NCBI GenBank assembly: GCA_016867815.1
Contig: VGIR01000005.1
Coordinates: 779 to 64,778 of the forward strand
DNA from: a candidate division WOR-3 bacterium
GTDB lineage: Bacteria > Hydrothermota > Tepidihabitantia > Tepidihabitantales > Tepidihabitantaceae
Length of the DNA: 64,000 nt
Reading direction: 5' to 3'
Below the pieces are notes generated by a model. That model did not search any database. It had not been told where the DNA came from and worked only from the letters and a program-made list of their open reading frames with translations. Positions 3,800 through 62,629 of this stretch are shown one piece after another. Positions within the stretch are counted from its first letter, which is position 1. Each line of letters starts with the position of its first letter. The position numbers were made by a program, and so were the translations under genes.

Positions 3800-3897
3800 A
3801 GGAATCAAGGAATCGAGGATTCAAGGAACCCAGTGAACGGATTGCCCGAGTCAGGCTCTCACATGAATCCTGGAATCCTGGGATCCTCGTATCCTCT
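3800..3897. repeat. Inverted pair of 8-mer micro-repeat tracts, AGGAATC(A/G)-like on the left and GAATCCTG-like on the right
   Basis: aggaatcaaggaatcgaggattcaaggaacc ... gaatcctggaatcctgggatcctcgtatcct, between the regulator and kinase genes. Confidence 0.7.
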
Positions 3898-6651: not shown

Positions 6652-8901
6652 GTGACCAACACCAAGAAGAAGATACTCGTAGTTGAGGACGATGCCGGCC
6701 TGCGTGAAATGGTCAAGAGTAGGCTCGAGAAGGAAGGGTTTGACGTAGTCACCGCGACCGATGGGTTCCAGGCCGTCGTCACGGCACGCCAGGGCGACCT
6801 CGACCTGATTGTTCTCGATTTGATACTCCCCAAGATGGACGGCTACTCGGTATGCCAGCTGCTCAAGTCGAGCGGGGCAAAGACCCCGATCATCATCCTC
6901 AGTGCCCGTTCGTCGCCGGAGGACATACGCCGAGCCCTCGACATGGGAGCGAACGCCTTTGTTCCCAAGCCGTACGACGCGCCGGTGCTGGTGAGCAAGG
7001 TCCGCGAGATCCTGTTCCCCGGGGAACAGGCCAAGACGTCGGTGGCCGCACCCGTAGCAGCTCCTCCGAAACCGGCGCCGGTAGTTGAGGCGCCGAAACC
7101 GGCTCCAGCAGCGGCGGTTATGACGCCCCCCGCCCTGGACAAAGCGAAGGCGGAACGCGAGGCGGCGGAACGGCGGGCGAAAGAGGAAGCCGAAGCCAGG
7201 GCACGTGCCGCCGACGCTGAACGCAGGCGGCAGGAAGAAGCCCGGAAGACAACGCCGACACCCACCAAGGAAGAGCTCGAACTCATAGAAGAAGAGAAGA
7301 GACTCGCCCAGAAACGAGCCAAGCTGCAGGCTGAGGCCCAGGCTCGCGCCGAAGCGGAACGGAAGCGGCAGGAAGAAGAACAGAAACTCGCGGCGCAGCG
7401 CGCCCGCGAGGAAGCCGAAGCCAAGGCTCGCGCCGAAGCCGAACGTAAGCGCAGGGAAGAGGAAGAGAGACTTGCCGCGCAGCGCGCCAAGGAAGAGGCC
7501 GATGCCAAGGCTCGCGCCGAGGCCGAACGCAAACGCCGGGAAGAAGAACAGAAGATCGCGGCGCAGCGCGCTCGCGAGGAAGCTGAAGCCAAGGCCCGCG
7601 CCGAAGCCGAGCGCAGGAAGCGTGAGGAAGAGGAACGCAGAATCGCCGCCCAGCGGGCCAAGGAAGAAGCCGAAGCCAGGGCTCGCGCCGAGGCCGAACG
7701 CAAACGCCGGGAAGAAGAACAGAGGATCGCGGCGCAGCGCGCCAAGGAAGAAGCCGAGGCCAAAGCGCGCGTTGAGGCGGAACGCAGGAAGAAGGAAGAG
7801 GAACGAAGACTCGCCGAGCAACGCGCCCGCGAGGAAGCCGAAGCCAAGGCTCGCGCCGAAGCCGAACGCAAGCGGAAAGAAGAAGAAGCTCGCCGACTCG
7901 CCGAGCAGCGAGCCCGCGAGGAAGCCGAGGCTCGGGCACGCTCAGAGGCCGAGATCAAGCGGCTCGATGAGCAGGAACGCAGACTCGCCCAGCAACGCGA
8001 GAAGGACGACGCCAAGACCAAATCCCGCTTCGACGGAGAACGGCGAAAACTCGAGGAAGAGGAGCGAAAGCTCGCCGAGAGACGGGCGCAGTTTGAAGCC
8101 CAGGTGAAAGCCTACGCTGATGAGGATCGCAAGCGCAAGGATGAGGAACGGAAACTCGCCGAGAAGCGCGGGCAACTTGAAGCCCAGGTGAAGGCCTACG
8201 CCGAAGCGGAACGCAAACGGAGAGAAGAGGAACAGCGGATCGCTGCGCAGCGCGCCAAGGAAGAAGCTGAGGCCAGAGCACGGGCCGAAGCAGAACGCAA
8301 GCGGAAAGAGGAAGAGGAGCGCCGGAGACGGGAAGAGGAGCAGCGAGCCAAAGAGGAAGCCGAGGCCAGGGCACGCGCCGAAGCAGAACGGAAGCGAATC
8401 GAGGAAGAGGAGCACAAACTGGCCGAGAAGCGTGCCCGCCTCCAGGCCGATGCCAAGGCACGCGCTGATGAGGAGCGCAAGGTGGCCGAGCGGCGAGCCA
8501 AAGAGGAAACCGAGGCCAAGGCACGCGCCGAAGCGGAACGCAAGCGACTCGAGGAAGAGGAACGTTTGCTGGCCGAGCACCGCGCCAAGGAGGAGGCGGA
8601 AGCGAAGGCCCGCGCCGAGGCGGAGCGCAAGCTGGCCGAAATGCGCGCCAATGAGACAGCCAAGGCCAAGGCTCGGGCCGAAAAGGAGCGCCAGGTTGCC
8701 GAGCAGCGTGCCAAGCTCGAAGCCGAAACCAAGGCCCGCACCGAGGCCCAACGCAAGCGCACGCAGGAGGAAGCCGAAGCCAAGGCCCGCGCCGAAGCGC
8801 TGCAACGGGAATGCGAAGAAGAGGAACGCAAGCTCGCCGAACGGAAAGCCCGGCTGGAGGCCGAAGCCAAGGCCCGCGCCGACAAGAACCGCAAAGCATA
8901 G
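6652..8901 (+). CDS. Response-regulator receiver fused to a P/A linker and a very long E/R/K/A charged helical repeat
   Basis: Intact receiver residues (EDD, LDLILP, LSA, PKPY), then ~590 aa of 28-29-aa repeats such as EEEQRIAAQRAKEEAEARARAEAERKRR; RBS AGGAGG before the GTG. Confidence 0.85.
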   Translation: MTNTKKKILVVEDDAGLREMVKSRLEKEGFDVVTATDGFQAVVTARQGDLDLIVLDLILPKMDGYSVCQLLKSSGAKTPIIILSARSSPEDIRRALDMGANAFVPKPYDAPVLVSKVREILFPGEQAKTSVAAPVAAPPKPAPVVEAPKPAPAAAVMTPPALDKAKAEREAAERRAKEEAEARARAADAERRRQEEARKTTPTPTKEELELIEEEKRLAQKRAKLQAEAQARAEAERKRQEEEQKLAAQRAREEAEAKARAEAERKRREEEERLAAQRAKEEADAKARAEAERKRREEEQKIAAQRAREEAEAKARAEAERRKREEEERRIAAQRAKEEAEARARAEAERKRREEEQRIAAQRAKEEAEAKARVEAERRKKEEERRLAEQRAREEAEAKARAEAERKRKEEEARRLAEQRAREEAEARARSEAEIKRLDEQERRLAQQREKDDAKTKSRFDGERRKLEEEERKLAERRAQFEAQVKAYADEDRKRKDEERKLAEKRGQLEAQVKAYAEAERKRREEEQRIAAQRAKEEAEARARAEAERKRKEEEERRRREEEQRAKEEAEARARAEAERKRIEEEEHKLAEKRARLQADAKARADEERKVAERRAKEETEAKARAEAERKRLEEEERLLAEHRAKEEAEAKARAEAERKLAEMRANETAKAKARAEKERQVAEQRAKLEAETKARTEAQRKRTQEEAEAKARAEALQRECEEEERKLAERKARLEAEAKARADKNRKA

Positions 8902-8955: not shown

Positions 8956-9771
8956 GTGACAACACCACAGTTGATCAGATTCGCGCTGGCGGAAGATGTC
9001 GGCACGGGTGACGTCACCTCCCGACTTGCGGTTCCTGCTCGCCGGCTTGCCTCTGCCCGGCTGGTCGCTCGCGCAGCCGGAGTAATTGCCGGCCTCGATG
9101 TGTGCTGCCGGGTCTTCCTTACCGTTGACTCGTCTGTCCGCTTCGCGCCCAGGTTGGAGGATGGCGCTCGGTACCGCAGGAACCAGGTGCTTGCTGTCGT
9201 CAGCGGCCGGGCCCGGTCGATTCTCACCGCCGAACGCACCGCCCTCAACTTCATCCAGCGGCTGTCCGGCATCGCCACGGCAACCCGCAGATTCGTCGAC
9301 GCAGCCCGCGGGACCAAGGCCGTCATCCTCGATACGCGCAAGACGACGCCGGGCTGGAGAGTGCTGGAGAAGTTCGCGGTCCGCTGCGGCGGCGGCACCA
9401 ATCACCGTGCCGGCCTCTACGACATGATTCTCATCAAGGATAACCACATCGCGGCTGCCGGCTCGATCACGGCGGCCCTCGAGCGTTGCCGCTCCAGCCG
9501 ACTATCGACTGAGGTCGAGACGCAGACCCTGGCTGATGTCAAAGAGGCCCTGGCCGGTGGAGCGAAGCGCATACTGCTCGACAACATGACTGTGGCAGAG
9601 ATGAAGAAAGCGGTTGCGCTCGCCCGCGGCAAGGCGCAGCTCGAGGCCTCGGGCGGAGTCACTTTGCGGAACGTGCGCCGGGTTGCGCACACCGGGGTTG
9701 ACTACATCTCAGTCGGAGCCATAACCCATTCGGCTCCGGCCGCGGACATCGCGCTCGATTTCGAAGGGTGA
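8956..9771 (+). CDS. nadC: Nicotinate-nucleotide diphosphorylase (quinolinate phosphoribosyltransferase)
   Basis: Motifs LAEDVGTGDVT, LDTRKTTPG, NHRAGLYDMILIKDNH, LLDNM, EASGG, DYISVGAITHS. Confidence 0.96.
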   Translation: MTTPQLIRFALAEDVGTGDVTSRLAVPARRLASARLVARAAGVIAGLDVCCRVFLTVDSSVRFAPRLEDGARYRRNQVLAVVSGRARSILTAERTALNFIQRLSGIATATRRFVDAARGTKAVILDTRKTTPGWRVLEKFAVRCGGGTNHRAGLYDMILIKDNHIAAAGSITAALERCRSSRLSTEVETQTLADVKEALAGGAKRILLDNMTVAEMKKAVALARGKAQLEASGGVTLRNVRRVAHTGVDYISVGAITHSAPAADIALDFEG

Positions 9772-9850
9772 TCGAGTGTCCCAGTGATCCAGTGCGCGAC
9801 GCTGGACGCCGGTTCCTCCACTCGATCACTAGACCACTAGACCACTGGTC
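9768..9850. repeat. Inverted micro-repeat tracts between the convergent nadC and dprA
   Basis: gtgatcgagtgtcccagtgatccagtg ... cactcgatcactagaccactagaccactgg. Confidence 0.6.
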
Positions 9851-26544: not shown

Positions 26545-26560
26545 GCCTAACTCCTAACTG

Positions 26561-27211
26561 CTACCTGCTGGCCTGCCCTGCCAGCCGCTCTATCTCCAGC
26601 ACCGCTGTGTGCGCGTCGGGTGCGAACGCGTCCGCGCCGATGTTACCGGCAAACTGCGCAGTGACCGGCGCACCCCCGACGATCACCTTCACGCCGGGGC
26701 GCAGTCCTACCTTGTCCAGCGCTTCGACCACCTTGCCCATCCTTGGCATGGTGGTGGTCATCAGCGACGAAACGCCGAGCACTGCGGCACCGTTCTCAGC
26801 CGCCTTGACGAACTCCGGCAGCGGGACATTTCGGCCGAGGTCGACAACCTCGAATCCGGCCGCCTGAACCATCACCTTCACTATGTTCTTGCCGATGTCG
26901 TGGATATCGCCCTGCACCACGCCCAGAATGACCTTGCCCTTTGTAGCCTGCGGCTTGTAGCTTGCGGCCTTCGACAGTATGTCGAACCCGGCGTACATCG
27001 CCTTGGAGGCGAGCAGCACCTCCGGGACGAAGCACTCCTTGGCCGCGAACTTCTCCCCCATCCGGCGCATGCCGGCGGCAAGGCCTTGCGTCATTGCGTC
27101 CTGCGGCGACAAACCCTGCTCAAGCACCTTGCGCGCCAGCTCGGCCACCAGTTCCGGCTTCATCGTAGTGACGGCATCAGCCAGTCGGGCGAAGAGATCT
27201 TTCTCAGCCAT
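26561..27211 (-). CDS. Cognate corrinoid protein (MtbC/MttC/MtaC-like; four-helix cap plus Rossmann B12 domain)
   Basis: GLAAGMRRMGEKF...FVPEVL cap; B12 motif GDIHDIGKNIV, VDLGRNVP, SSLMTTT, VGGAP; start ATG 27211 with RBS GAAGG. Confidence 0.93.
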   Translation of the reverse strand: MAEKDLFARLADAVTTMKPELVAELARKVLEQGLSPQDAMTQGLAAGMRRMGEKFAAKECFVPEVLLASKAMYAGFDILSKAASYKPQATKGKVILGVVQGDIHDIGKNIVKVMVQAAGFEVVDLGRNVPLPEFVKAAENGAAVLGVSSLMTTTMPRMGKVVEALDKVGLRPGVKVIVGGAPVTAQFAGNIGADAFAPDAHTAVLEIERLAGQASR

Positions 27212-28114: not shown

Positions 28115-28631
28115 GCCTCCTCGTGGAAACGGCGAACTCCGAGGTCCGAACGCCGAACTCCGGATCCGCCGTTTGTTGCTCCGCGGCGACGCTTGAAGCT
28201 CCAAAGGTCTCTTACCGAGCCTTGGCGCTCTTGGCGTCCTTGGCGGTTCTCTTCTAGTCTGGCCGGCAAACTGCCGGCACAAAGCCGGTCAATCATACCG
28301 CTTGTCTACCTAAGGTTGTGGTTGTGGTTCTGTAACAGCAAACTGGTAACTGGAAACTGGTAACTGAGTCCGTCTCGTCCGGTCTCCGAGGCGCACGGCC
28401 CCGGCACAAGTGCCGAGTCATGGCACGCGCCTCCGGCGCGTCACAAGAGACCTATCAACATTCACCGTACGATGATAGACACTCCCCCCGGACGAGTCAA
28501 ATGCCGCCGCGGCGTGACATCATCTGCAAGAATGTGGACCGCAGTGGATAGGTGTCTCTGGGCCTCGCGAGCCCCCCAGCGGTCAGTCCAGATTCTAGCC
28601 CCGTGGCAAGACTGAAGAGACTCGGCGGATT

Positions 28632-36804: not shown

Positions 36805-39411
36805 ATGCTGCGGAAATCCCTGTTCCTGATTATCGCGGTCGGGCTCTCTTTGTGCCTGGCCGGTGAATTCCTCGCCCTCGTTCCGAACACGGCCCCGGAC
36901 GACCTCGCCGGGCAATACACCGTCGTCGGCGTCACCGGCCGCGGCACGCTGGTGCTGGGGGACGAATCCGAGCTCGCCGACCTCTTCGCGCGCGACGGGT
37001 CCTGGCTCGCCGCTGACCCGAAGGACCACCTGTACTTCACCGTTCGCCTGTTCGCCCAGGCTTCGCGCACCGACCTGGCGGCGGTTTCCCGCATCCTTGA
37101 CTTCGACGGCGAGCAGTACCTGGTCGAAGTCGAGTCCGATGCCGTCGAGCGCTTCATCGCCGTGCCGGCAATGCGCGGCCGCATCAGCCTGAACGGCTGG
37201 GTCATGGACCGCCCGACACCGAAGCTACCTGTTGTTCTCTCCAACCCGTCGGTCGAGCAGATCGTGGCGCGCGTCTCGTCCGACTCGGTGCTCGCATTCG
37301 TACGCCGGCTGCAACAGTACCGCAACCGCTACTCGACCGGTGACTCCTGCAAAGCCGCCGCCCAGTGGATTGCGGCGACGTTCCGGGCTTACGGCTGCGA
37401 CACGGTCATCCTGCAGAACCATACTACCAACCACGCGCCCAACGTCGTCGGGGTCCGCTACGGCACTTCAGGACAACGTAGTCCGTATGCAATCATCGAC
37501 GGCCACTTCGATGCCTACGCCGCGTCGAACGCGCCCGGCGCGGACGACAACGCCTCGGGCACGGTGTCCGCAATCGAGGCCTGCCGGGTAACACAGGGCT
37601 TCCAGTTTCGGCACGACCTCAGGTTCATCGCTTTCTCGGGCGAGGAGTTCGGCCTGCTCGGCAGCGAGTACTACGCCGGGCGGGCGCGCAGCCAGGGAGA
37701 CTCGATTCTCGGCGTGCTGAACTTCGATATGATCGCCTACGAAGACAGCGCTCCCGAGGACCTCGAGGTGATAGGGAAGATCGCCAGCCCGGCCTGCGGG
37801 CCGTTCGTTGACTGGTTCATCGCGGTCGCCGACACCTACACGAGCCTGCCCTGCAGCAAAGAGATGGTCTCCGACATGCAGAGCTCCGACCAGGGGCCGT
37901 TCTGGAACAACGGCTACCTGGGATTCTGCGGCATCGAAGACTATTGGCCCGGCAACCCGTACTACCACACACCCGGCGACTCGATTGGCGCCGGGTACAA
38001 CAACAACAACTTCTGCACCGAAGTCATCCGGGCCGGCGTCGCTGCCCTCGCCACGATGGGCGAGCCGGTGCCGCAGAACGTGCCCTCGGTCGGCCTGCTG
38101 CACAAGCTGCTCGACGACTCTGCGGGCAACGACAACGGCAAGTGGGACGCGGGCGAATCGGTCGCCGTCTTTCTGACGCTGAAGAACTTCGGTATGGCCG
38201 GTGCCACCGGTGTGAGCGCTGCGGTCAGCTCCACCGATCCGTATGTCACGCTCTACAACGTGGACGCGGCCTACGGCGACATCGCCGGGCTGGACACAGC
38301 GGTCAACGCGGTGCCCTTCACGATGAAAGCCGCCCCCAACACTCCCCGCGAGCACGTGGCCGACTTCGACCTGACGATCTCCTCTGCCGAGTCGAGTTGG
38401 CAGACGACCTTCTCCTTCCCCATCGGCGAGTACCTGAACACGGACCCGATACCGGACGGGCCGCGCGTGCCCGCGCGCTACTGGGCCTACGACGACGTCG
38501 ATACGCTCTATCCCGAGCACCCGAACTACGAGTGGGTCGAAGTAAACGCGCAGGGTACGAGGCTCACATTCTCGGACAACGACGACGTCGTCCCGGTCAG
38601 CCTGCCGGCAGCATTCGGCCCGTTCCGGTACTACGGCCGGAGTTACAGCCAGATATCGGTATCTGCCGACGGCTGGATTGCGGCCGGAAACTACACCACG
38701 TCCAACTTCGACAACACCATCCTGCCCAGCACCTCGGCCCCGCGCGCCACGGTCTTCGCCAACTGGGACGACCTCTACCCGGTGTCGGGCAGCGGAGGAG
38801 CCGGCTACGTGTACTGGTTCCACGACTCGGCCAATCACCGCTTCATCGTTGAGTACGACAGCGTCAAGTACTACTCGGGCTCGAACCGAGACAAGTTCGA
38901 GGTCATCTTCTACGACACCACGGTTACGACTCCGACCGGCGACAACGTCATCGTCGCGCAATACAAGACCGCGGCCGGGTTCACGAGTTCCACAGTCGGT
39001 ATCCAGGACTCGACCCGGGCCATCGCGATCCAGGACCTTTTCAACGGCACGCTGGCCCACGGAGCATCGCCGATTGTCCCCGGCCGGGCCATCAAGTACA
39101 CGACGGCCCCCGGCACCGGGGTCGCCGAGCCGACCCGCCGCCTCACGCCGGACGCCTTTCACCTCACGCTCGACAGGAACCCGGTATGCGGGAGCGCACA
39201 AGTCCGGTTCAGCTTGCGTCAGGCGTCAAGCGTCAGGCTTGAGGCCTTTGACCGGACCGGCAGAAAGCTCACGACCCTGGTTTCCAGTTTCGCATCCGCC
39301 GGCTCGCACGCAACGACCTGGGACACCCGTGAAGTCCCGACCGGCATCTACTTCCTCCGGCTGACCGCTGCAGGCGGACAACGTTCGCTCAAAGTGGTAG
39401 TCGGCCGCTAG
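36805..39411 (+). CDS. Secreted M28 metallopeptidase with extra beta domains and T9SS-CTD-like C-terminus (long paralog)
   Basis: Signal peptide; IDGHFD, PGADDNASG, FSGEEFGLLGS, NFDMIAY, YYHTPGDS. Confidence 0.92.
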   Translation: MLRKSLFLIIAVGLSLCLAGEFLALVPNTAPDDLAGQYTVVGVTGRGTLVLGDESELADLFARDGSWLAADPKDHLYFTVRLFAQASRTDLAAVSRILDFDGEQYLVEVESDAVERFIAVPAMRGRISLNGWVMDRPTPKLPVVLSNPSVEQIVARVSSDSVLAFVRRLQQYRNRYSTGDSCKAAAQWIAATFRAYGCDTVILQNHTTNHAPNVVGVRYGTSGQRSPYAIIDGHFDAYAASNAPGADDNASGTVSAIEACRVTQGFQFRHDLRFIAFSGEEFGLLGSEYYAGRARSQGDSILGVLNFDMIAYEDSAPEDLEVIGKIASPACGPFVDWFIAVADTYTSLPCSKEMVSDMQSSDQGPFWNNGYLGFCGIEDYWPGNPYYHTPGDSIGAGYNNNNFCTEVIRAGVAALATMGEPVPQNVPSVGLLHKLLDDSAGNDNGKWDAGESVAVFLTLKNFGMAGATGVSAAVSSTDPYVTLYNVDAAYGDIAGLDTAVNAVPFTMKAAPNTPREHVADFDLTISSAESSWQTTFSFPIGEYLNTDPIPDGPRVPARYWAYDDVDTLYPEHPNYEWVEVNAQGTRLTFSDNDDVVPVSLPAAFGPFRYYGRSYSQISVSADGWIAAGNYTTSNFDNTILPSTSAPRATVFANWDDLYPVSGSGGAGYVYWFHDSANHRFIVEYDSVKYYSGSNRDKFEVIFYDTTVTTPTGDNVIVAQYKTAAGFTSSTVGIQDSTRAIAIQDLFNGTLAHGASPIVPGRAIKYTTAPGTGVAEPTRRLTPDAFHLTLDRNPVCGSAQVRFSLRQASSVRLEAFDRTGRKLTTLVSSFASAGSHATTWDTREVPTGIYFLRLTAAGGQRSLKVVVGR

Positions 39412-40659: not shown

Positions 40660-42222
40660 GTGCTGCGGAAGTCGTTTCTGCTGATCGTCACCGTCGCGGC
40701 TTCTCTGGCCGGGGCCGCTGAGTTCCTCGGACTGGTGCCGAACTCGACTCCGGAAGACCTGGCCGGCCGCTACACCATCGTCGGCGTCACCAGCCACGGC
40801 GTGCTGATCCTGTCCGGCGAAGCCGCCGACGGCGACTTCGCGGCGCTGCACGGGCGGCTCCTGGCCGAAAACCCGAAGGCACACCGCTACCACACCGTGC
40901 GCCTGCTCGCTGATTCGTCCCGCGCCGACCTTGCCGCGGTCTCCCGCATCCTCGACTTCGACGGCGAGCAGTACCTTGTCGAGGTCGATCCCGACGCGAT
41001 CGAGAGCTTCCTTGCCGTGCCGGCGATGCGCGGCCGAATCAGCCTGGACGGCTGGGTAATGGGCACGCCCGCACCCGAGCTGCCTCGCGTCCTGTCCAAT
41101 CCGACAATTGAACGGATCGTGGCGCGGGTCTCCCCGGACTCGGTGCTCGCGTTCGTGCAGCGGCTCCAGGATTTCGGCAACCGCTATGCGCTCGGAGAAT
41201 CGGGCAAGGCAGCTGCCCGGTGGATTGCCGGGAGGTTTCGAGACTGGGGATGCGACACGGTCATCCTCCAGGACCACGATGCGGACTACGCGCCCAACGT
41301 CGTCGGCGTCCGCTACGGCTCTGACGGCCGGCGCCAGACCTACGCGGTCATCGACGGTCACTTCGACGGCATCCCCTGGTCGCCCGGCGCCGACGACAAC
41401 GCCTCGGGCGCGGTCTCAGCAATCGAGGCTTGCCGCGTGACACAGGGCTTCCAGTTCCGTCGCGACCTCCGCTTCATCGCCTTCTCCGCCGAAGAACTGG
41501 GATTGGGTAGCCCCTACTATGCCGGCCAGGCGCGGAACCGGGGCGACTCTATCCTCGGCGTCCTCAACTTCGACATGATTGGCTACGCGGACTCCGTGCC
41601 CGAGGACCTCGAGGTCATCGGCAAGATCGCGAACCCGGCCTGCGAACCGCTGTGCGACTTGTTCATGGCAGCCGCCGACACGTACACCACACTCAACTGC
41701 AACAAACGGATGATGACGGACATGCCGTATTCGGATCATGCTTCGTTCTGGAACAACGGCTACGTGGCGCTCTGCGGCAGCGAGGACTTCTGGCCACCGA
41801 ACCCGTACTATCACTCACCCGGCGACTCGATTGGCGCCGGGTACAACGACAACGGCTTCTGCACCGAAGTCATCCGGGCCGGCGTCGCGGCCCTGGCGAC
41901 TCTGGGTGAGCCCTTGCCGGCGGGCGTGTCGTCATCCGCGCCCTTCGACCTCTTGTCCGGCAGCACTTATGGGCTCGTTCTCCAGCCGAACCCGGTACGC
42001 GGGACCGCACAAGTTCGATTCAGCTTGCGTCAGGCGTCAAGCGTCAAGCTGGAAGCTTATGACCGCTCCGGACGAGGACTGGCGACATTGGCTTCCGGCT
42101 CAGCTTCCGCCGGCGCGCACTCCGCGACCTGGGACACCCGTGACGTCCCGACCGGCATCTACTTTCTCCGGCTGACCGCTGCAGGCGGACAACGTTCGCT
42201 CAAGGTGGTAGTCGGCCGCTAG
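40660..42222 (+). CDS. Secreted M28 metallopeptidase with T9SS-CTD-like C-terminus (short paralog)
   Basis: IDGHFD, PGADDNASG, FSAEELGL, NFDMIGY, SDHASFW, YYHSPGDS; lacks the central domains of the long paralog. Confidence 0.9.
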   Translation: MLRKSFLLIVTVAASLAGAAEFLGLVPNSTPEDLAGRYTIVGVTSHGVLILSGEAADGDFAALHGRLLAENPKAHRYHTVRLLADSSRADLAAVSRILDFDGEQYLVEVDPDAIESFLAVPAMRGRISLDGWVMGTPAPELPRVLSNPTIERIVARVSPDSVLAFVQRLQDFGNRYALGESGKAAARWIAGRFRDWGCDTVILQDHDADYAPNVVGVRYGSDGRRQTYAVIDGHFDGIPWSPGADDNASGAVSAIEACRVTQGFQFRRDLRFIAFSAEELGLGSPYYAGQARNRGDSILGVLNFDMIGYADSVPEDLEVIGKIANPACEPLCDLFMAAADTYTTLNCNKRMMTDMPYSDHASFWNNGYVALCGSEDFWPPNPYYHSPGDSIGAGYNDNGFCTEVIRAGVAALATLGEPLPAGVSSSAPFDLLSGSTYGLVLQPNPVRGTAQVRFSLRQASSVKLEAYDRSGRGLATLASGSASAGAHSATWDTRDVPTGIYFLRLTAAGGQRSLKVVVGR

Positions 42223-59950: not shown

Positions 59951-60007
59951 GGCGAAGAACGTCCCTTGTCGCCTGGTCCTTCGTCCCCTACCGCTGGACG
60001 CGCGATT

Positions 60008-60090
60008 CCCCTCACCCCGACCCTCTCCCCATACGCGGGGCGAGGGGGAATCTCCTCTCCCCTTGATGGGGAGAGGAAGAAGGTGAGGGG
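60008..60090. repeat. Palindromic element family A, intergenic double copy
   Basis: ccctcaccccgaccctctcccc...ggggcgaggggg...cctctcccc...ggggagagg...ggtgagggg. Confidence 0.75.
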
Positions 60091-60098
60091 TGCATTCG

Positions 60099-61541
60099 TC
60101 ATCGGTCATTCCCCTCGGGCTGTGACGCTTCAGACGAGGGACGGTGGACGAGACTACGAAGAACCTCGATTCCCTTCTCGAGGATCTCGTCCCGGCCGGC
60201 GCGAACTCCCTCGACAGTCGGCGCGGCCTGAACGTCAGGTATGATGCCGACATTCTGGAACCGGCTGCCATCTCCGAACTTCACCCGCATGCCGGTGAAC
60301 CAGAGGCGCCCGCCGCCCGGCAGGCTAATCCAGGTTCGGTTGCCGTTGCAGCCCGCGGTCGTTCCACCCACGAACGTCCCTCGCCCGGCGTTCTTGAGAT
60401 AGATGCAGACGTCTTCGGCGCTGCCGATGGTCTTCTCGTTGACAAGGACCACGACCGGTCCGCCATAGTGCGCCTTCGCATCCGGCTGGACATCATACTG
60501 ACCGGTGCTTACGACCTGTTCCTGGCTATCAAAGCCGGACACGACGCGTATCTCGTAGATCGCCGACTTCACCGGCCGGTCACTCAGCCTTGAAGCTAGC
60601 GCGAGCTGCATAGTGAATCCCGGATGCCGCCGGATGTCGACGATCAGACCATTTGTTCCGCGCAGCGCCTCGAACGCGCGCTCGAACTCCCGCAGGCTTG
60701 CCAGCCGGCCGAGGTCCATGTAGCCGACGTTCTCTTCCAGAACCCGGTACCCGCTCGACTCACCTCTGCGTGCCGAATAGGCAATCCGCGCCTCGCGGGT
60801 TAAGGTACGCTTCAGACAGAGCGACAAGCAAGGGATCGAGGGATCAAGGGATCGAGGAATCGAGGGGCCGGAGTCCGATACCGGAGCCTCGCCTGACTCT
60901 ATCCCTTTGTCCCTTTGTCCCTTCACTCCCTTCCGTCTGATCACCAGCTTCACTTCGCTACCGGCCTGTCCAAGGACCAGCATTTCGCACATCCGCTGAT
61001 AGAACGCGCCCTCGGTGGAGTACGAAACCTGCAGCCGGTGCTCAGTAACCAGTTCCTGCACCGTCTTCCCGTCGAATTCAACCACTTCGTCGCCGACCTG
61101 CAGAGAAGGGACCGAGGGATCAAGGGATCGAGGGATCAAGTGATCCGGGCCTGAATCCGAAGCCCCAATCTGTGCAATCTGCGAAATCTGTGGATGCTCC
61201 ATCACATCCGTGACAATGATCTTGCCTTCGACCCAGGCGAAGAACACCGGCAGCGACTGCGATTCGGGCAGGTTCGGGAAGAAGTAGAAGACGTTGTTGT
61301 CGTGCAGATGAGCGGTCAGCATCCGGAGCGTGCGCGCGTACGCAAGCAGGCTCTCGGCTTCCTCGACCTTGGGAATCCACTCCGCCAGGCAGGCACTCCA
61401 GTCCATGTCGCACAGCTCGACGTGCGGGTCAAGATAGCGTATCACGCTCCAGACTTTGAACAGGCCCAGTAACCGCTCCTCACGAGACGGAGTCCTGCCG
61501 GTCTCTTGCAGCGGCGCCGGCAGCCTCAGATCCACCAGCAC
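60099..61541 (-). CDS. S41-family peptidase, C-terminal module (helical domain, PDZ, catalytic domain)
   Basis: VWSVIRYLDPH, LQVGDEVVEFDG (PDZ), GYMDLG, LIVDIR, VLVNEKTIGSAE (catalytic Ser), GIIPDV..PT..GVRAGRDEILEKG. Confidence 0.85.
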   Translation of the reverse strand: MLVDLRLPAPLQETGRTPSREERLLGLFKVWSVIRYLDPHVELCDMDWSACLAEWIPKVEEAESLLAYARTLRMLTAHLHDNNVFYFFPNLPESQSLPVFFAWVEGKIIVTDVMEHPQISQIAQIGASDSGPDHLIPRSLDPSVPSLQVGDEVVEFDGKTVQELVTEHRLQVSYSTEGAFYQRMCEMLVLGQAGSEVKLVIRRKGVKGQRDKGIESGEAPVSDSGPSIPRSLDPSIPCLSLCLKRTLTREARIAYSARRGESSGYRVLEENVGYMDLGRLASLREFERAFEALRGTNGLIVDIRRHPGFTMQLALASRLSDRPVKSAIYEIRVVSGFDSQEQVVSTGQYDVQPDAKAHYGGPVVVLVNEKTIGSAEDVCIYLKNAGRGTFVGGTTAGCNGNRTWISLPGGGRLWFTGMRVKFGDGSRFQNVGIIPDVQAAPTVEGVRAGRDEILEKGIEVLRSLVHRPSSEASQPEGNDR

Positions 61542-62629
61542 GGCGGGCGACTCTCGACTCTCGACTCTCGACTTTCTGCCGCCAACGCTCGCTCCGCAAC
61601 CGCAGCAAGTTGGTCTGGAGCAATCGGTCCATCCGTGACAATGTCGGGACGGAATCCGGCCTGCCCACTGTGCCCGACCAGCAGATCCGTGCTGAGCTGC
61701 ACGGCGACGCCCTCAGGGAATGCCAATCGGAACGGCGGCTCTCCCAGTGGCGGGCCGCTCGGTTCGAACACTACTGCAACCCCCGGCTGAGACTGCAGCG
61801 CGTCGAGCGCCCGGTAGTATCTGGATGCGAACGGCCGATTGACCAACAAGACGGTCGGCGTGTCAATTGGCTTCAGCTTTGAAAAGTCTGTGCCGGGAGA
61901 CAGGGCAGCCACGAACCACTCGGCCTGCTGTATCGGACGCAACCCGGTCCCGGCACTCACTTCCCACTTCTGCTGGTATGCGCTGTGGCTGTTGTCCTCA
62001 TTCCAGCCCAGATGGACTCGTCTCATCACCGGGCTCATCTGCAGCCGCCCGCGGACGAAGAACTGAAGCACCGGGTCGATCACGCGGTAGCCGAGCGCGA
62101 CCGGCCAACGCAGGTCCACGATGAGCGTCTTGACATCTCCCAGGCCCTCGACCGTGGCCTGGAAGTCAGCAAGGAACTCGGATCCCCGCGCCGTCGGCGG
62201 CGGAACCCGCACGTAGCCAACCGAGTCCGCAATCCGCTTCGCTTCGAGGCGCCCGTCTTTCACTCTATCCCTTGATCCCTCTATCGCTCTATCCCTTCTC
62301 GCTTCCGCAAACGTCAGCGGATCATCCAGCCCCTGCAGTAACTCCTCGTTGATAGCTGCGGCCAAGTCCTCAGGCGTTTGCGCAGCCTCGACGCGGGGAA
62401 TGGCCCGGACCAAGGCCTGATGCCAGTCTAACTCAGCTCCCTCACCCTCTCTCCCTCTCCCACCGGGAGAGGGACGGTTCTCTTCGCTCTGTTCCCCTCT
62501 CCCTCTGGGAGAGGGTTGGGGTGAGGGCGCAACAACCGCAGGATGGAACAGATAGACCTTGCCCCACAGTTCGGCTAGCGCCTCAAGGCGCTTGAGCCGA
62601 ACTGAGGATTCTGGGGTCCTGGGGCTCAC
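61526..62629 (-). CDS. S41-like peptidase, N-terminal module, probably non-catalytic
   Basis: LWGKVYLFHP, DWHQAL, GYVRV, LIVDLR, LLVN, GFRPDI; no SA(S/G)E motif. Confidence 0.75.
   Translation of the reverse strand: MSPRTPESSVRLKRLEALAELWGKVYLFHPAVVAPSPQPSPRGRGEQSEENRPSPGGRGREGEGAELDWHQALVRAIPRVEAAQTPEDLAAAINEELLQGLDDPLTFAEARRDRAIEGSRDRVKDGRLEAKRIADSVGYVRVPPPTARGSEFLADFQATVEGLGDVKTLIVDLRWPVALGYRVIDPVLQFFVRGRLQMSPVMRRVHLGWNEDNSHSAYQQKWEVSAGTGLRPIQQAEWFVAALSPGTDFSKLKPIDTPTVLLVNRPFASRYYRALDALQSQPGVAVVFEPSGPPLGEPPFRLAFPEGVAVQLSTDLLVGHSGQAGFRPDIVTDGPIAPDQLAAVAERALAAESRESRVESRPPCWWI
61549..61576. repeat. Heptamer tandem repeat (GACTCTC)3-GACTTTC at the junction of the two S41 ORFs
   Basis: Read directly from the sequence: units start at 61549, 61556, 61563 and 61570. 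Confidence 0.9.
62439..62527. repeat. Palindromic element family A, in frame inside the S41 N-module
   Basis: Encodes PSPQPSPRGRGEQSEENRPSPGGRGREGEG between FHP and DW. Confidence 0.8.

Follow-up and report, generated by a model that had tools for sequence, protein, structure and literature searches.

Surveys of long simple sequence repeats (SSRs) have reportedly been made by Mrazek et al. Genes are known to be switched or broken by frameshifts at coding microsatellites, and nearly all of the documented cases come from host-adapted pathogens. The neuO gene of Escherichia coli K1, carried by the CUS-3 prophage, has (AAGACTC)n in its 5' coding region, with 3–53 units and 66% of the genomes in the OFF state; the counts are mixed within a single culture, and the full-length protein is made only at certain counts (PMC13001214). 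In Haemophilus influenzae, (AATTTTG)14 was found inside hmw1a together with a frameshift, with at least 3 units as the threshold for SSR detection (PMC2651432). Heptamer direct repeats are also an abundant class in some bacteria, as reported for TAACTGA in Beggiatoaceae, cyanobacteria, and Bacteroidetes (PMC4679880). Here, we analyzed a 64-kb stretch of DNA from a candidate division WOR-3 bacterium (contig VGIR01000005.1; the whole stretch is called the window below), in which a heptanucleotide array lies at the junction of two minus-strand open reading frames (ORFs), each encoding one module of the peptidase S41 fold. We found that the two ORFs belong together as halves of a single gene and that the array is exactly one repeat unit short. 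This is probably a sporadic slippage frameshift of one unit, which split a normally single gene at a domain boundary and became fixed in the population.

The locus resembles neuO in that a 7-nt unit inside an ORF is translated as a heptad-periodic peptide, the number of units sets the frame, and the number would change by slippage. It differs from neuO in that its array has four units, every assembly shows this same count, and the relatives nearly all have five. Moreover, the neuO array is located at the 5' end of the gene, whereas the array of the window is in an inter-domain linker, and the split state leaves a complete first module. The locus also resembles hmw1a as a heptamer SSR in the middle of an ORF that is tied to a frameshift. 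However, Haemophilus is a host-adapted pathogen with long tracts in surface adhesins, while the present bacterium is free-living and uncultivated and carries a short tract in a protein that is probably cytoplasmic and non-catalytic.

The two ORFs and the array are listed in Table 1. On the minus strand, the context of the array reads 5' to 3' as ...GCG GCA GAA AGT CGA GAG TCG AGA GTC GAG AGT CGC CCG CCG TGC TGG TGG ATC TGA, and the peptide encoded by the array is the inter-module linker ...ESRESRVES... TRF placed the array at 61548–61573 with a period of 7, 3.7 copies, and 100% matches. No exact 7-mer array of at least 2.7 copies was found in 30 dinucleotide shuffles, which argues that the junction array is no chance match. 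The C-terminus of the upstream ORF is ...ESRESRVESRPPCWWI, followed by the stop codon; the last seven codons (RPPCWWI, 61549–61529) are out of frame and had no match in relatives. The frame of the downstream ORF lies one base before the codon boundary of the upstream ORF and is open upstream past the array to about 61712, and the frames of the two ORFs overlap by about 190 nt. The phase of the GC content at the third codon position (GC3) flipped from 0 to 1 exactly at the array, and the coding signal was strong on either side (0.80 and 0.81). A first-pass annotation, made from the sequence alone, had given the array, the stop at 61526, the GTG at 61541, and the −1 register, and all of these were confirmed on the minus strand. 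Its arithmetic was also correct, as one added unit (+7 nt) or two removed units (−14 nt) at the array would fuse the two ORFs into one frame.

The comparison with relatives indicated a single gene. In three WOR-3 metagenome-assembled genomes (MAGs), the orthologue is one ORF of 786–842 aa, and the synteny is kept, consisting of a gene for a type IX secretion system (T9SS)-sorted protein, the two-module gene, a TrmB-like regulator, and PmbA/TldD. A database search using the least repeat-laden orthologue as the query revealed about 44 protein clusters of 747–892 aa that span both halves. The short matches in the same search were the window's P0046, P0004 (643 aa), P0045 and P0047, and P0048, with no others; P0045 and P0047 are truncated by contig ends, and both are in frame at the junction. 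Both of the anchors described below occur in 24 other DNA loci, all of which were in frame at the junction; where the flanking sequence sufficed, one uninterrupted ORF of about 760–900 codons was present. The loci L005 and L010, which lack the upstream anchor, were likewise in frame through the junction. When genome contigs were scanned a second time, using the junction alignment as the query, only a distant Terriglobia homologue was added, which lacks the array. It had been proposed to check whether the orthologues are single proteins, and in the WOR-3 relatives they are, with about 750–890 aa. The two ORFs of the window are thus halves of one gene.

Two of the loci had breaks at other places. 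In L005, the frame is broken within module 1 (around TVF/LVNRP, about 880–930), and the junction itself is in frame. A second ORF break, in L004, was considered as a frameshift and rejected; unrelated sequence starts right after an octamer array (about 950–1000), and L004 is probably a chimeric or rearranged contig.

The size of the lesion was measured as the distance from the anchor VQLNT to the anchor REERLLGLF. This distance was 225 nt in 14 loci, 228 nt in 10 loci, 240 nt in one, and 258 nt in one, and it was 218 nt (225 − 7) in the window and in the contigs L001 and L002. Every orthologue carries an array at the junction site, which is a heptamer array with the exception of the octamer array of L006. 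The junction arrays of the orthologues were (GGGACNA)5, (GGGAGGA)5, (GGGGCGA/GGGACGA)5, or (GCCTCAA)4 plus GCAGGGAGTCG. The relatives usually have five units (35 nt), translated into about 12 aa of low-complexity spacer, as against four in the window. The allele of the window is therefore exactly one repeat unit short, and its position is the domain boundary. A lesion of one unit (218 vs. 225 nt) fits slipped-strand mispairing, which agreed with the mechanism put forward in the first-pass annotation.

In the WOR-3 clade that carries the gene, an S41/IRBP-like module 1, a microsatellite-encoded linker, and a helical/PDZ/S41-like module 2 form one protein of about 750–890 aa. One unit may have been lost by slipped-strand mispairing as the simplest cause, and a gain of two units (14 nt) from a two-unit array is also possible as the origin. 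The missing 7 nt shift the frame, and the translation of module 1 ends after seven out-of-frame codons at the TGA of 61528–61526. Module 2 stays in the −1 register, where it has just a GTG to start from and lacks a good Shine-Dalgarno sequence. The event was most likely sporadic and recent, and a tuned high-frequency switch is less likely. A gain of one unit would restore the fused protein, and reversion is possible in principle.

The allele was compared within the population using consensus assemblies. L001, which is from a different sample, is 99.9% identical to the window with 3 single nucleotide polymorphisms (SNPs) elsewhere, and L002 is 100% identical; both have the same array allele as the window. 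Two protein clusters were found in which all members end in ...ESRESRVESRPPCWWI, and the sources of these members are Joint Genome Institute (JGI) contigs from at least 2 samples, an NCBI MAG, and a Logan assembly. The annotation of the NCBI MAG has two genes at this locus. An in-frame allele of the window population was not found in the protein database. It is known that de Bruijn assemblers at small k can collapse short tandem repeats, and an assembly or sequencing artefact would mean that the true array has five units. However, the identical allele was obtained from different samples and pipelines (JGI several times, the NCBI MAG, and Logan), once with SNPs elsewhere, and arrays of about the same length, consisting of four perfect units and a fifth that is partial or imperfect, came out intact in the assembly of other JGI contigs such as L012 and L023. 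An artefact is very improbable on these grounds, and the assembly error that had been listed earlier as an alternative is effectively excluded.

Module 2 consists of a helical N-domain, a PDZ-like insert, and a Peptidase_S41 domain (match to PF03572, E = 1.4e-18), and its best sequence match in the PDB was IRBP (9frx, E = 5e-15). Module 1 had no sequence match in Pfam or the PDB. The hhalign comparison of module 1 with module 2 was collinear, showing 86% probability for the N-terminal helices followed by weaker matches in order. The AlphaFold model of module 1 had a predicted local distance difference test (pLDDT) value of 80.8 and a predicted template modelling (pTM) score of 0.81; it was complete and confident up to the linker, and its low-confidence stretches were exactly the repeat-derived inserts. 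The top 50 PDB matches of this model in Foldseek were mainly S41 proteases and IRBP modules (E about 1e-9). The S41 domain or fold was thus found in both modules, and the homology between them that the first-pass annotation had claimed is supported by both hhalign and AlphaFold/Foldseek. The predicted structure suggests that module 1 has an S41/IRBP-like fold without a PDZ domain and is non-catalytic.

It had also been claimed that only the second module has the catalytic Ser, and this was misleading. The catalytic positions were assigned by alignment to 4l8k together with general knowledge of the S41 family. At the S41 nucleophile position, the core WOR-3 clade carries Gly (NEKT-x-G-x-[AS]-ED), and the His of LNDSH is replaced by Asn (LHDNN); the window shares both changes. 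The Ser of GSAED in the window is one residue off the nucleophile position and is not conserved. The outgroups P0044, P0050-53, and L035 (a Terriglobia MAG) keep S-x-x-E and LND[SN]H. In the core clade, we did not find the Ser of S-x-x-E combined with a general base, which is Lys, or His in the CPAF/tricorn type. Judging from these residues, the protein is probably a non-catalytic IRBP-like tandem S41 protein. It shares the S41 fold with IRBP (retinol-binding protein 3) and the Bacteroides S41 proteins 4l8k and 8vcb, and, like IRBP, it has tandem modules in which the catalytic residues are missing; unlike IRBP, it has two modules instead of four and a PDZ-like insert in module 2. The protein is probably cytoplasmic. 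The core-clade proteins (P0005-P0048) mostly begin directly at the conserved N-terminus, and the distant homologues P0049-53 have N-termini that look hydrophobic and signal-like by eye.

We presume that the mutation was tolerated because it separates, exactly at their border, two modules that are autonomous and probably non-catalytic. Programmed −1 ribosomal frameshifting or transcriptional slippage could yield the fused protein from the four-unit template; the needed shift is indeed −1, and the frames overlap for about 190 nt. However, no X XXY YYZ slippery site was present in the zero frame of the overlap, a homopolymer run was also missing, the RNA fold at the junction was not stable or unusual (z = 0.44), and no Rfam family matched at the junction. 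The relatives are in frame, and the frameshift is not conserved in the orthologues. As neither the slippery heptamer nor the downstream structure nor the conservation that characterize programmed frameshifting was found, such recoding is extremely improbable.

A stable gene fission was also considered, in which the two modules are made separately and act as non-covalent partners; module 2 would be translated from GTG 61541 or 61535 by termination-reinitiation, as both codons overlap the stop of the upstream ORF. The cut coincides with the domain boundary, and it leaves a complete model for module 1 and an intact ORF for module 2. The GTG lies 13 nt before the stop, the conserved columns show no excess of substitutions, and the NCBI annotation has two genes. 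On the other hand, no Shine-Dalgarno sequence of the AGGAGG type precedes GTG 61541, though many genes of the window have one; the GAGAG that was earlier suggested as the ribosome-binding site is a weak site in a genome that otherwise uses AGGAGG. In the fused frame, the GTGs simply encode Val (SPAVLVDLRLP for GTG 61541), they are not conserved as starts, and the split is limited to the window population and perhaps P0048. A stable fission is therefore unlikely. The window copy deviates at 6 of the 286 near-invariant columns of the family, compared with 1–9 in the intact orthologues. It suggested that the split is recent or that both halves are still under selection.

The array may instead be a contingency locus, that is, a selected and reversible ON/OFF (fused/split) switch by slipped-strand mispairing as in neuO, with the window caught in the OFF phase. 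As the unit length of 7 nt is not divisible by 3 and the array is within the ORF, the count sets the frame, as expected of an SSR contingency locus (four 7-nt units in the window and five-unit orthologues in frame). Moreover, the array is kept at the same site in all orthologues, the units are homogenized within arrays, the array types are patchy on the tree, P0048 is a probable second independent split, 7- and 8-nt arrays are enriched 16–24 times in the genome, and (AAGACTC)n of neuO is a precedent. However, repeat-number polymorphism in the population or in close relatives, which is another property of such loci, was not found in the consensus assemblies, where one count was present throughout. 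Only 3–4 units are present; the tract has three perfect units and one with a mismatch, which is at the 3-unit threshold of Power et al. and far below the typical tracts of neuO and hmw. About 44 of 46 lineages are in frame with a count almost fixed at five, compared with the 3–53 units and 66% OFF genomes of neuO. The product has no signal peptide and is probably non-catalytic, unlike the typical phase-variable surface or restriction-modification genes.

The history of the arrays also bears on a selected switch. Among about 45 lineages, the unit count is nearly invariant, almost always five and in frame, and in-frame variants of ±3 units were not seen across them, which argues for rare slippage. 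Most of the arrays carry point substitutions common to relatives, indicating that they were inherited and not reshuffled. The major-allele fraction at synonymous positions was 0.86 within the array and about 0.72 outside it; this difference is too weak, and a constraint on the array at the DNA level is not claimed. Taken together, a selected switch is improbable. Of the phase variation suggested in the first-pass annotation, the control of the frame by the repeat count stood, while switching is unsupported, given the single count in the window population and the five units of nearly all relatives. Adaptive phase variation is possible but is unsupported by our data.

Several findings weigh against a sporadic and fixed frameshift. 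First, the array of the window is among the purer ones, with three perfect units and one single-mismatch unit, and L012/L013 and L023 hold four perfect units; this purity reaches the threshold for heptamer SSRs of Haemophilus, and slippage is therefore non-negligible. Second, P0048, which is 66% identical to the window and 85% identical to P0022 and belongs to a different subclade, also seems to be split here. It begins with MNLKLPAPL right after the junction, the ORF upstream of it ends one base into its start codon, and the relative frame of the two is the same as in the window. A homologue search aimed at this upstream ORF gave no match. Third, the unit types are homogeneous within arrays and patchy on the protein tree (745 well-aligned columns), as in P0013 with type a and P0014 with type b, or in types c and d, each of which is found in separate clades. 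This patchiness implies repeated homogenization or replacement at the junction site. The site thus turns over, perhaps through out-of-frame intermediates, and minority alleles may exist beside the consensus allele.

A wider reading of these findings would be that 7- and 8-nt microsatellites, kept at fixed positions in inter-domain linkers and beside gene starts and homogenized or swapped between lineages independently of the gene, are frame switches throughout the clade which occasionally fission and re-fuse multi-module genes. We consider this doubtful; if it is true, an environmental bacterium that is free-living and uncultivated would have a contingency-locus-like system, of which the window holds one switch caught in the split state. 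The one-unit slippage frameshift, sporadic and fixed, is still the reading that we regard as likely. It would present an environmental bacterium of a candidate phylum that lost one unit from a conserved, linker-encoding heptamer array. If the count proves heterogeneous in the population, contingency-locus biology would be extended to free-living uncultivated bacteria. For annotation, the two called genes are better read as one frameshifted gene, whose S41 domain is probably non-catalytic and IRBP-like. The gene family and the genome are rich in in-frame 7- and 8-nt arrays, whose position and length are conserved and whose unit sequence is replaced patchily.

Table 1. Features of the split gene in the window (positions on the forward strand)
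Feature	Position	Strand	Description
Heptanucleotide array	61549–61576	−	GAAAGTC at 61576–61570, then perfect GAGAGTC x3 at 61569–61563, 61562–61556, and 61555–61549
Upstream ORF (module 1)	61526–62629	−	367 aa; TGA at 61528–61526; the array is read through
Downstream ORF (module 2)	60099–61541	−	480 aa; start GTG at 61541–61539
Octamer array, GGGATCRA-type, 5 copies	61106–61145	−	In frame in module 2; translated ...PDHLIPRSLDPSVPSL...
Octamer array, GGGATCRA-type, 4.5 copies	60831–60866	−	In frame in module 2; translated ...SGPSIPRSLDPSIP...
Octamer array, GGATAGAG/GGATCAAG, 4.2 copies	62263–62296	−	In frame in module 1; translated ...RDRAIEGSRDRV...; pLDDT <50
GC-rich palindromic element, like repetitive extragenic palindromic (REP) elements	62430–62530	−	In-frame insert in module 1; translated PSPQPSPRGRGE...GRGREGEG (PSPRGRGE...GRGREGEG); pLDDT <50

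The gene and its surroundings contain other repeats of the same kind. In the window, TRF detected 14 arrays of period 7 against 0.85 expected and 11 arrays of period 8 against 0.45 expected. A set of related loci centred on this gene, 73 kb in length, contained 68 period-7 and 27 period-8 arrays, with less than 1 expected for each. About half of the window arrays are located at gene boundaries, some as inverted pairs, and the rest are in frame within coding linkers, including five in this gene. As with the TAACTGA families, 7-nt (and 8-nt) direct repeats of 2–6 copies are strongly over-represented in the genome, and many of them are intergenic beside gene starts. The arrays do not belong to the TAACTGA or STRR-like families, as they have many different units and are coding in about half of the cases; they are alike only in kind. 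At gene boundaries, heptamer arrays of CTAACTS x3 (26547–26569) and TAACTGG/AAACTGG x3.7 (28341–28366) resemble the TAACTGA direct repeats of Beggiatoaceae, cyanobacteria, and Bacteroidetes.

The unit types of the junction (GCCTCAA, GGGACNA, GGGAGGA, and GAGAGTC) do not follow the protein tree (L003-L030, P0004-P0047). The heptamer-coded peptides ASSLKPQASS, RREEGGERRE, GTRDQGPGT, and RSQKLEARSQK are seen again in other linkers within the same protein. In this respect, the junction arrays behave like exchangeable cassettes of fixed length. The hairpins of the REP-like element are CCCTCTCCC-N4-GGGAGAGGG, and the element is disordered in the model of module 1. A related copy was observed at 59990–60090, in the spacer before the TrmB-like gene.

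Intergenic octamer arrays form inverted pairs at 3800–3836 / 3859–3895 and 9768–9794 / 9819–9845. They are of the AGGAATCA type and the GTGATCSA type, 70–84% complementary, and 22–24 nt apart, and could form long imperfect intergenic hairpins. A (GCGTCAR)3 array occurs twice, at 39216–39238 and 42027–42049, within a 46-nt stretch that is 93% identical between the two places. This stretch reads FSLRQASSVRLEAFD and shows a candidate likeness to C-terminal sorting domains of the T9SS type. Coding tandem repeats of 84, 168, and about 150 nt were found at 7336–8798 in a Glu/Ala/Lys/Arg-rich protein, which is probably a coiled-coil. The arrays were also considered as clusters of GATC/GANTC methylation sites, and this was dropped, as GATC, GAGTC, and GACTC are at the expected frequency in the window. 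Regarding short words in the window, TCGA is 2.3-fold over-represented, CTAG is about 4-fold under-represented, and GAATC and GATTC are enriched about twofold.

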